Shown here: positions 46,295-47,806 of the stretch, piece by piece
How positions within the stretch are numbered: the stretch's first letter is position 1
How the letters are laid out: the number at the start of each line of letters is the position of its first letter
Assembly: GCA_947457015.1 (NCBI GenBank)
Contig: CANGTV010000003.1
Location: 1,958-65,957 of the forward strand
Length of the DNA: 64,000 nt
Direction: 5' to 3'
Origin: Alphaproteobacteria bacterium
GTDB taxonomy: Bacteria > Pseudomonadota > Alphaproteobacteria > UBA9655
Notes under the pieces: model-generated
The model's database searches: none
Seen by the model: the letters and a program-made list of their open reading frames with translations, nothing else
Told to the model about the DNA's origin: nothing
Position numbers and translations under genes: made by a program

Positions 46295-47806
46295 CTACAG
46301 CTCGTCCTTTGAGGCCTTTTCTTTTTTCCATAATTCTATAACCTCCTGCAAACTGAGGTCTTTTAAGGGTGGATTAGTACAGGTTTTTGTTTTTTCAGGC
46401 TCTAGAAAACCCTGCTCTTTTGTTATATCAGAGCTCTTCTCTGAATTTTCTGGTTTTACATCTGGTAGGACATTTAACCCCTGGCTCTTGGGATCTTTGA
46501 TAATAAGAGAAAAGGGCCTCCCATCACTCTCGTCAAAGGTAAGCGACGCATCGCTGCTTTTTAAGGTTAACGATTCTGGCTGTTTAGGGTTAAAGCACAT
46601 TTGCGTCACCTCTCCGCCCGATTTAAGAGCAGTCAGCAAGCATATAGGCTCTTCCCCTAAGTTATCATAGTCAGTCGTCATTTCATGAAAGCCTCCACAA
46701 CTCCCTTTGTTGCCTTTTAAGTGAAGCCCGATATGGCGCATACCTTGACCCGACTTAAGACCTTCATGAGCTTCGCTTAATGTTAACTCTGGAACAGTTT
46801 CTACTGTTCGCGTCGCAAGAACCTTCATATTTGGAAAGCATGTTTTAGTCACAGGTGAGTCGGCCGTTAGAGATGTATAAAAACATGTTTGTCCATCCTG
46901 GAGCTTTACAATAGAAACAGGGTCAAAACGCGCGTCGGATGTGGGATGCCTGGCGAAAATGTAGATGTCATCACCAACTGTCTGCCCTGTTGGGATGAGC
47001 GTCCGGCATTCTTCAAGACTTTTACCATTATGTAAACACGTATACGCTGGCGTTATCACAGTTGGCCAAGGATCTTCGGAACAAATTCGGTTGGGATTAT
47101 AATGAGCTCTTGCGTCCTTATAGCTTGACCATTCAAGGGCTTCACCTCCAGGAATTGCGGCGATACAGAAAATTGCCGTGCTATATAAGGCAAATTTTGC
47201 TAATTTCCCAGAACGCGTCCTCACGGTCATTGAAGAGGCCAGATTTGCTAATCCCTTACTGAGTTTAAGGTTACTGACTCCTTTCAGACAAGGACCAAGA
47301 AGAGGCATCACCTCTCCTCCCCGTGTCCAAGCTAGAAGAACGCCTCCCCCTACGGTGACCGTATCGAGAGGATTTTTGGCAATTGCCTTCACAAGTTTTT
47401 TCGTTTTGTTAGCCGTATATGTTAAAAGGCCGTCTGTTCGGATTTCCGTGATCTGATCCTGAGTGGCCTTAAGAACCTCTTTCCCTTTTTGCTGATAAAA
47501 TTCTTGAGCCTCTTTGGTTGTTTTCTTAGATGAAAAAAGCGTCGCCACAAAGAGAACAGGAACATCCCAGAATACAGTTGTAGTTACCTTCTTCATTTTT
47601 GCGAACCACGAGGTCGGTTGAGGAAGGGGCTCTTCTTGAAGAGAAGAGGAACTTTGAGAAGAAGATTTTTTTGTTAAGAAAGCTGAGGTCGTTTGCTCGT
47701 CATTATCCATCGCATAACAGGGAGAATAGGGAGAATAGGGAGTAAGACAGGTAAGAAGATACGTCCACGCGATAAACACAGCAAAACTCTTAACAAAATA
47801 TTTCAT
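46295..47806 (-). CDS. Hypothetical secreted Cys-rich protein ending in the ER-retrieval motif KDEL
   Basis: 503-aa ORF with a hydrophobic N-terminus, a Ser-rich linker and 13 Cys. The last codons read tca aag gac gag ctg tag, giving S-K-D-E-L-stop. No family recognised. Confidence 0.65.
   Translation of the reverse strand: MKYFVKSFAVFIAWTYLLTCLTPYSPYSPCYAMDNDEQTTSAFLTKKSSSQSSSSLQEEPLPQPTSWFAKMKKVTTTVFWDVPVLFVATLFSSKKTTKEAQEFYQQKGKEVLKATQDQITEIRTDGLLTYTANKTKKLVKAIAKNPLDTVTVGGGVLLAWTRGGEVMPLLGPCLKGVSNLKLSKGLANLASSMTVRTRSGKLAKFALYSTAIFCIAAIPGGEALEWSSYKDARAHYNPNRICSEDPWPTVITPAYTCLHNGKSLEECRTLIPTGQTVGDDIYIFARHPTSDARFDPVSIVKLQDGQTCFYTSLTADSPVTKTCFPNMKVLATRTVETVPELTLSEAHEGLKSGQGMRHIGLHLKGNKGSCGGFHEMTTDYDNLGEEPICLLTALKSGGEVTQMCFNPKQPESLTLKSSDASLTFDESDGRPFSLIIKDPKSQGLNVLPDVKPENSEKSSDITKEQGFLEPEKTKTCTNPPLKDLSLQEVIELWKKEKASKDEL

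Follow-up and report, generated by a model that had tools for sequence, protein, structure and literature searches.

Why would a gene on a bacterial chromosome encode a protein ending in Lys-Asp-Glu-Leu (KDEL), the tail by which eukaryotic cells retrieve soluble proteins to the endoplasmic reticulum (ER)? Such a gene is present in a 64,000-nucleotide stretch of an alphaproteobacterial genome (contig CANGTV010000003.1; hereafter, the window), where an open reading frame (ORF) on the minus strand (46295..47806) encodes a protein of 503 aa, here called the query. An earlier reading made from the letters of the DNA (the sequence-only reading) had reported a 503-aa minus-strand ORF with the end S-K-D-E-L-stop, and we confirmed it in the DNA: the last codons read tca aag gac gag ctg tag, so that K-D-E-L (residues 500-503) occupies 46298..46309 on the minus strand and the TAG stop follows directly at 46295-46297. 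The four residues and the immediate stop fit the PROSITE pattern PS00014, [KRHQSA]-[DENQ]-E-L. With a confidence slightly above even, we favor the view that the product is a Sec-exported, disulfide-bonded protein that would be routed to, or held in, the ER of a host.

The sequence-only reading had named loss or free variation of the motif among orthologues as grounds for dropping its proposal. As observed for the four close orthologues (P0002-P0005; 71, 65, 61 and 47% identity), all end in exact KDEL, and the residues before it diverge over the preceding 5-10 positions (ASKDEL, RIPKDEL, EVVKDEL, PCPKDEL). Across eight genes, the codons of the tail vary synonymously (K, AAG/AAA; D, GAC/GAT; E, GAG/GAA; L, CTG/CTC/TTG/CTA/CTT); the constraint bears on the amino acids and not on the DNA. 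Further Holosporales-type members end in KKDEL, KKEL, KNEL or KQEL. When 90 family sequences were considered, fragments included, 35 ended in [DE]L, 25 in [KRH]x[DE]L and 12 in exact KDEL, compared to 1, 0 and 0 of the 124 background ORFs from the same contigs, an enrichment of ~35-fold or more (Fisher p=1.5e-14, a test that overstates independence, the family members being phylogenetically related, and this counts against our reading). In the profile of the 35 tails, position -4 is mostly basic (K22/R3), position -3 is free (D13, K10, Q3, E3, others), position -2 is acidic (E27/D8) and position -1 is Leu. Positions -5 to -8 show no preference, and the distance from the last conserved element to the tag is variable. 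As judged from these aligned ends, the profile matches the PS00014/KDEL-receptor pattern, and not a PDZ-type signal. To our knowledge, no bacterial C-terminal signal has the same combination of a basic -4, a free -3, an acidic -2 and a Leu -1 position. In a crude neighbour-joining tree, KDEL-like tails occur on 8 or more deep branches. The composition-based probability of a KDEL end is ~2.3e-5 per protein, and among the window's 93 stop-to-stop ORFs with a length of 100 aa or more, only this one ends in xxEL. Taken together, the comparison of homologous ends indicates that the tail is kept by selection across the query clade and many other branches of the family. The sequence-only reading had cautioned that four residues can match by chance; this origin is ruled out by the conservation of KDEL across the homologues.

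We then considered the gene as a whole. Compared to the orthologue on contig L012, the ratio of nonsynonymous to synonymous substitution rates (dN/dS) over the coding sequence is 0.28 (for the parts described below, the linker and N-module give 0.35-0.42 and the Cys domain 0.20); the gene is thus real and under purifying selection. On the same orthologous contig, the neighboring prolyl-tRNA synthetase (ProRS) is 95.6% identical to the window copy with a dN/dS of 0.028, and the KDEL protein is 71% identical. By these ratios, the KDEL gene is constrained and yet evolves about ten times faster than its ProRS neighbor, an effector-like rate. Fast evolution under constraint is typical of host-interaction proteins.

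The domain organization was established from family conservation, hydrophobicity and an AlphaFold2 (AF2) model built from a 50-sequence alignment (mean predicted local distance difference test, pLDDT, 77.7). Residues 1-33 (47708..47806, minus strand, as for all parts of the protein) form a Sec-type signal peptide with a probable signal peptidase I site: the N-terminus reads MKYFVKSFAVFIAWTYLLTCL...CYA|MD, with a basic n-region, a hydrophobic core and small residues at -3/-1, a layout and cleavage site judged by eye and without a predictor tool. Its Kyte-Doolittle (KD) peak covers residues 1-26, and residues 2-21 are modeled as a helix of low pLDDT. The signal peptide is conserved in P0003-P0005 and also in P0002 once its start is corrected, the public gene call beginning 29 codons late and the true start (L012 2259-2345) adding the signal peptide MKYVIKSFAMFIAWTYLLTCLAAYSPCYA. 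Residues 34-66 (47609..47707) are a Ser-rich acidic linker containing the stretch KKSSSQSSSS, weakly conserved and, together with the N-module, the fastest-evolving part; it is disordered in the model (pLDDT <50 over residues 22-66). The signal-like N-terminus and Ser-rich linker of the sequence-only reading are thus both present, and the Sec/signal peptidase I layout is conserved in the orthologues. A lipoprotein was considered and rejected: the L-L-T-C of the query has Thr at -1, which fails the lipobox [LVI][ASTVI][GAS]C, and the lipobox Cys is missing in P0006, L004 and L005 (AQA|S, LQA|S, LQA|T).

Residues 67-223 (47138..47608) correspond to a conserved helical N-module (helices at 97-216, pLDDT 73-94) with the motifs LFvttLFEPF, hPLDa and G.t, which terminates in an A/G/S-rich hydrophobic helix at residues 198-223. 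The two further hydrophobic segments announced by the sequence-only reading do exist, but they are marginal (KD 19-residue maxima of 1.54 for residues 72-94 and 1.55 for 199-225) and are probably not true membrane anchors. Only the second, at residues ~199-223, is conserved family-wide, and its Hessa-scale dG is ~+3 to +4 kcal/mol in nearly all members; since such values disfavor a strong transmembrane anchor, this helix is unlikely, on the predicted energies, to act as an efficient stop-transfer segment. Residues 224-452 (46451..47137) form a beta-rich Cys domain (pLDDT 90-98 over ~225-450). Its Cys 242, 257, 267, 308, 323, 370, 389 and 404 are invariant or near-invariant in the 50-sequence alignment. 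With those at 20, 30, 173, 214 and 476, the query has 13 Cys, and 9 of the 13 lie past residue 225, as the sequence-only reading had counted beyond the last hydrophobic segment. The eight conserved Cys would fit four disulfides and an extracytoplasmic location. A flexible linker follows (residues 453-485, 46352..46450), whose length and sequence differ across the family; it is gapped and variable in alignment A1, and its pLDDT is below that of the domain throughout, mostly low and <50 for residues 464-477. It leads to a short amphipathic helix (residues 486-499, 46310..46351), for which the family motif is SLWeAl.WWW.qK.PC and the query reads LQEVIELWKKEKAS; the model gives pLDDT ~73-77 for residues 486-501, falling at the end. 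In this model the KDEL tail, placed past a flexible linker and a short helix, should be accessible.

The fold proved not assignable, as the sequence-only reading had stated: even the confident AF2 model has no significant Foldseek neighbor. Pfam and NCBIfam gave nothing significant on the query (best DUF2706, E=0.09, and RcpC, E=0.14, both noise), and Pfam found 0 families on 50 family members and 10 multidomain members. A PDB sequence search, with the single protein and with the profile, had as its sole hit a ParM fusion (E=0.026), a noise-level match. Foldseek against the PDB, with AF2 models from a shallow and then from a good alignment, gave a best E of ~0.011 with TM <=0.3, and the weak matches scattered over beta-sandwich and lectin-like folds, none of them significant. 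Against BFVD, the single Foldseek match (E=8.6e-4, TM 0.13, root-mean-square deviation 27 Å) is meaningless, and a scan of IMG/VR found no viral homologue. No ADP-ribosyltransferase or other known catalytic domain was detected by Pfam, NCBIfam, PDB sequence or Foldseek PDB searches (E <0.001). The Cys domain of the query thus has no Pfam, PDB or Foldseek match.

The sequence-only reading had called the protein an orphan, which does not hold. Ten related proteins were found by a word-indexed search, and an exhaustive profile search of 1.84 billion representatives recovered 83 clusters at 50% identity (E<=1e-3), 44 of them at E<1e-30. As the seed, the query matches the family profile over its full length, with LFEPF, PLDA and all eight conserved Cys in place. 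No member has a precomputed Pfam domain, and the source names, seen for a handful, are all 'hypothetical protein'. Most of the 83 clusters are without known taxonomy. A set of 185,579 species, each represented by one genome, yielded only 5 loci, which come from metagenome-assembled genomes (MAGs): two of 'Caedibacter sp.', two of Parachlamydiales and one of a marine alphaproteobacterium; a metagenome scan with alignment A1 added just 8 loci, mostly duplicates. NCBI puts 'Caedibacter sp. 37-49' under Gammaproteobacteria. However, the protein of its sister MAG 'Caedibacter sp. 38-128' is also deposited, in identical form, as 'Holosporales bacterium'; therefore, we treat the Gammaproteobacteria placement as an artefact of the genus name and, on this identity, both 'Caedibacter' MAGs as Holosporales. 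The placeable members belong to Holosporales-type alphaproteobacteria and to Parachlamydiales, P0012 being annotated Holosporales. The window itself is alphaproteobacterial: it carries GapR, and its ProRS is 85-96% identical to that of many 'Alphaproteobacteria bacterium' MAGs, the closest named organism being the Paramecium endosymbiont Ca. Bealeia paramacronuclearis (78%). Overall, this is a small, undescribed family found in protist-associated intracellular bacteria of two phyla. For the host-associated effector or toxin of the sequence-only reading, the host-associated alphaproteobacterium is borne out by GapR, by the Ca. Bealeia-like ProRS and by the Holosporales and Parachlamydiales members, but the word toxin is unsupported, no catalytic domain having been found. 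The 14 distinct homologue loci inspected are all on contigs with typical bacterial genes or in bacterial MAGs, and no homologue's Pfam domain or annotation points to a eukaryotic family. One member, P0011, ends in ...NGKQE on a 1766-nt contig, which may represent a KQEL tail short by one residue.

Members of the family differ in how they begin. Holosporales-type members carry Sec signal peptides, and the Parachlamydiales homologues, together with P0009, are genuinely devoid of them, stop codons being present 3-14 codons upstream of the start. These Parachlamydiales homologues are mostly without the tail. Over the family, the tail is present in ~17/27 members with a signal peptide and ~6/27 members without (p ~0.005), with the reservation, which again weighs against a host route, that the family-wide signal-peptide calls are crude and heuristic. 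The MCMED-G24-type clade has a signal peptide and no tail. Since this clade and most Parachlamydiales homologues do without it, the tail is an accessory routing device outside the core fold. Two MCMED-G24-type proteins (L008 7692-9434 and L022 4001-5791) have a long C-terminal extension with the internal repeat F[DN]P[LH]TQCAL[ND] and the end WWFQR...

Six proteins share the N-module of the query family and have a different C-terminal Cys-rich domain, with the motifs CxLPxGSYxGSC, PYxSTD and ENCDG. Their ends are KDEL, KDEL, KTEL, KKEL, KGDL and EEEL. The tail is therefore portable, since two different cargo domains bear the same type of tail. A further group of ends is of the CxC type (ECKCR, CDCTCE, CVCEK, PECKC, SCKCES), frequent in P0030, P0034, P0033, P0041, P0023, P0018 and P0051; these members belong to a clade largely without signal peptides that also holds a Parachlamydiaceae locus, and their ends look like CXC prenylation signals of the Rab type, or like a metal site. 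In P0035 and P0056, CKC is combined with KDEL or KQEL.

The xxDL variants of the family (EKDL, KEDL and others) may be more than noise. MDDL is a functional ER-retention signal of Trypanosoma brucei BiP, of the kinetoplastid xxDL type (bioRxiv 10.64898/2026.04.03.716285), and kinetoplastids host Paracaedibacter-like Holosporales (PMC8163844). One could imagine a modular single-chain system by which protist endosymbionts deliver proteins to the host ER. In it, the N-module would bring about membrane insertion or translocation autonomously, the Cys-rich domains, being interchangeable, would serve as cargo or binding modules, and the tag would be adjusted to what the ERD2 of each host lineage recognizes (KDEL/KKEL/KQEL for amoebae and ciliates; xKDL/KEDL for euglenozoan hosts using xxDL signals). 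We regard this wider scheme as rather unlikely; if it is true, metagenome data alone could suffice to predict, from the tail, which host an uncultured symbiont has.

In the proposed route, the protein would be exported by Sec and its signal peptide cleaved, and its disulfides would be formed in the periplasm. The window contains two divergently oriented genes for DsbA/DsbC-like thioredoxin-fold proteins (21392-22228, minus strand; 22378-22995, plus strand), a periplasmic disulfide machinery that fits the export of Cys-rich proteins. Exit from the bacterium might then go through a system that depends on a secretin, through outer-membrane vesicles or through lysis. A gene for a secretin that is closest to MshL and GspD, but below the family cut-offs, is present 3.4 kb from the KDEL gene (51249-52865, minus strand) with no type II secretion system or type IV pilus partner genes adjoining it, and TadE, TadE and TadG-like genes lie elsewhere in the window (26011-28923, plus strand); these are a possible outer-membrane exit route, and we draw no link between them and the KDEL protein. 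The protein would next lie on the lumenal side of an endomembrane compartment of the host (phagosome, vacuole, Golgi or ER), where its exposed C-terminal K-x-[DE]-L would be bound by the host ERD2/KDEL receptor, which would return the protein to the ER or retain it there. Its action on the host would take place in the ER, through the Cys-rich domain, which may be a binding module, and through a membrane-active N-module.

Several points weigh against this host-ER route, in addition to the two statistical reservations given above. Known Holosporales are mostly naked in the host cytoplasm, away from the lumenal KDEL receptor, and the main weakness is thus topological: contact with the receptor would need a phagosomal entry stage, vesicles or vesicle fusion, or another host compartment. 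An outer-membrane export route for the KDEL protein was not identified, and no hallmark intracellular genes were found in the 64-kb window. Some tail variants (EKDL, DKDL, EKEL, EEEL, QLEL) fall outside the canonical pattern. The tail is missing from complete homologues in Parachlamydiales (L001/L006 and L007; KSDP, GELW), from the MCMED-G24-type L008 and L022 (QKVN, QKTL) and from P0008/P0009; since these complete homologues lack it, the tail is not essential to the function of the fold. The lack of a secretion route across the outer membrane, the homologues without the tail and the housekeeping genes around the locus would suit a bacterial envelope protein with no host role, whose conserved hydrophobic helix (199-223, KD 1.55-1.6) could anchor it and whose tail would be read by a bacterial factor (a C-terminal-processing/PDZ protease, a chaperone or a sorting step) or would cap the amphipathic helix. 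We consider such a protein unlikely, because the constraint on the tail (basic -4, free -3, acidic -2, Leu -1, a free carboxylate and a variable spacer) is the code of the KDEL receptor, the same tail occurs on two unrelated C-domains, and the family is placed only in lineages associated with eukaryotic hosts. Moreover, the Hessa dG of +3 to +4 disfavors a stable anchor, and a cleaved signal peptide followed by a single anchor would leave the 8-Cys domain in the reducing cytoplasm.

The members without a signal peptide raise another explanation, in which the protein, or at least its chlamydial form, would be delivered to the host cytosol by a type III or type VI secretion system (T3SS/T6SS) and inserted in the ER membrane by its hydrophobic helix, with the Cys domain and the tail in the lumen and the tail retaining it. 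The Parachlamydiales homologues truly lack a signal peptide, the helix is moderately hydrophobic, which is typical of secreted membrane effectors, some of the members without a signal peptide still end in KKDEL, EKDL or RSEL, and T6SS are widespread in Holosporales (PMC11909080). However, a Sec signal peptide is clear in the query and throughout its clade, a misfit with cytosolic delivery by T3SS or T6SS; most members without a signal peptide have no tail either; it is speculative that a 280-aa domain would be translocated into the ER post-translationally; and the window contains no T3SS or T6SS genes. Overall, injection appears quite improbable to us. We give hardly any credence to the tail being a chance match or the functionless leftover of a captured gene for a eukaryotic ER resident. 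A four-residue motif can indeed occur by chance (~2e-5 per protein), a signal peptide with KDEL is the hallmark of eukaryotic soluble ER proteins, and taxonomy is lacking for most of the clusters; but the motif has survived synonymous codon turnover and the divergence of its flanks, its enrichment over background is large (~35-fold or greater), it recurs on a second domain type, the 14 inspected loci are all bacterial, the GC content of the gene matches that of the window, and no Pfam domain or annotation of a homologue indicates a eukaryotic family. This explanation is essentially refuted because the tail is both under selection and portable. The host-ER route thus remains the one that we prefer for the query.

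KDEL-type tails are known from cholera toxin A2 (KDEL), E. coli heat-labile toxin (RDEL) and Pseudomonas exotoxin A (REDLK). Like the query, as read from its sequence, these AB toxins are Sec-exported, disulfide-bonded bacterial proteins whose extreme C-terminus mimics an ER-retrieval signal, and by analogy capture by the ERD2/KDEL receptor and retrograde transport to the ER may be presumed for the query as well. In contrast, AB toxins have an ADP-ribosyltransferase A domain, which was not detected in the query, and they encode a B-subunit or receptor-binding partner, of which there is no gene near the KDEL gene. They also differ in fold, they belong to extracellular pathogens and not to protist-symbiont lineages, and their tail is found in a single toxin, whereas here it is conserved across a modular family. 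The soluble ER-resident proteins (BiP, PDI, calreticulin; PS00014) share with the query an N-terminal signal peptide and a C-terminal [KRHQSA]-[DENQ]-E-L, and their natural tail variants are resembled by the KTEL, RDEL, KEDL and xxDL of the family; unlike them, the query is encoded on a bacterial chromosome and resembles no ER protein in sequence or fold. A ribosome-inactivating protein of Streptomyces scabiei carries KDEL at its C-terminus, interpreted as a retrograde-to-ER signal (PMC13592729); it is a single protein with a known ribosome-inactivating fold, whereas the tail of the query family is conserved family-wide. The Parachlamydiales homologues recall the chlamydial Inc proteins by their lack of a signal peptide and their moderately hydrophobic helices, one of them amid ankyrin-repeat genes. 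However, Inc proteins have a bilobed hydrophobic domain made of two adjacent transmembrane helices, an N-terminal T3SS signal and no Sec signal, and the query has a Sec signal peptide, one conserved marginal helix and a large disulfide-type domain; with a single marginal helix in place of a bilobed pair, the query was rejected as an Inc protein.

Among the obligate associates of protists, Holosporales and environmental chlamydiae are widespread. According to a review, how they interact with their hosts is poorly understood, with no experimental data on secreted molecules (PMC11909080), and our literature searches found no papers linking KDEL to Holosporales or a KDEL motif to effectors of Chlamydiae. 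The principle of a KDEL-type tail on a bacterial exoprotein is already known; what is new is a modular family, hitherto undescribed and of unassigned fold, that occurs in protist-symbiont lineages from two phyla and shows a family-wide series of tail variants. This candidate family can be recognized from sequence alone and predicts a host destination, the ER lumen via ERD2. It would extend KDEL mimicry beyond a few toxins of extracellular pathogens, to a modular family conserved in protist symbionts of two phyla, add a Sec-dependent host-acting route in lineages where T6SS and T3SS draw most attention, and supply a natural series of tail variants for the study of KDEL-receptor specificity in protists.

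Around the locus, the window contains genes for ProRS, LysE/ArgO, GapR and pyruvate kinase, the KDEL gene lying between those for ProRS and LysE. No conserved partner gene was common to the homologue loci inspected. Conserved synteny or an operon partner was rejected, the upstream ProRS being kept only in the closest relative L012, and so was recent foreign DNA, the GC content of the gene being equal to that of the window. A promoter and terminator scan gave counts no higher than in shuffled sequence. Genes for PLDc_2 phospholipase-D-like proteins flank the closest orthologues (L012 1039-2103 and 4753-5775; L013 1720-2775) and are absent at the corresponding position in the window. Three ankyrin-repeat protein genes surround a Parachlamydiales homologue (L001 2714-4549, 7262-9148 and 9288-10790) in an effector-island-like arrangement. 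The presence of gidB-parA-parB (58680-60971) and rho (57414-58670) suggests that the window is near the chromosomal origin region. Elsewhere in the window, a 1693-aa ORF (11267-16348, plus strand) has a Sec-type signal peptide (MKKFAFALGVTSCLVDVSLVYA|K) and no Pfam or NCBIfam match; it is followed by a 324-aa ORF (16431-17405, plus strand) with a signal peptide and the Cys cluster CWKCCFFPCC, also without a match. The products of these two ORFs could be further secreted host-interaction proteins.

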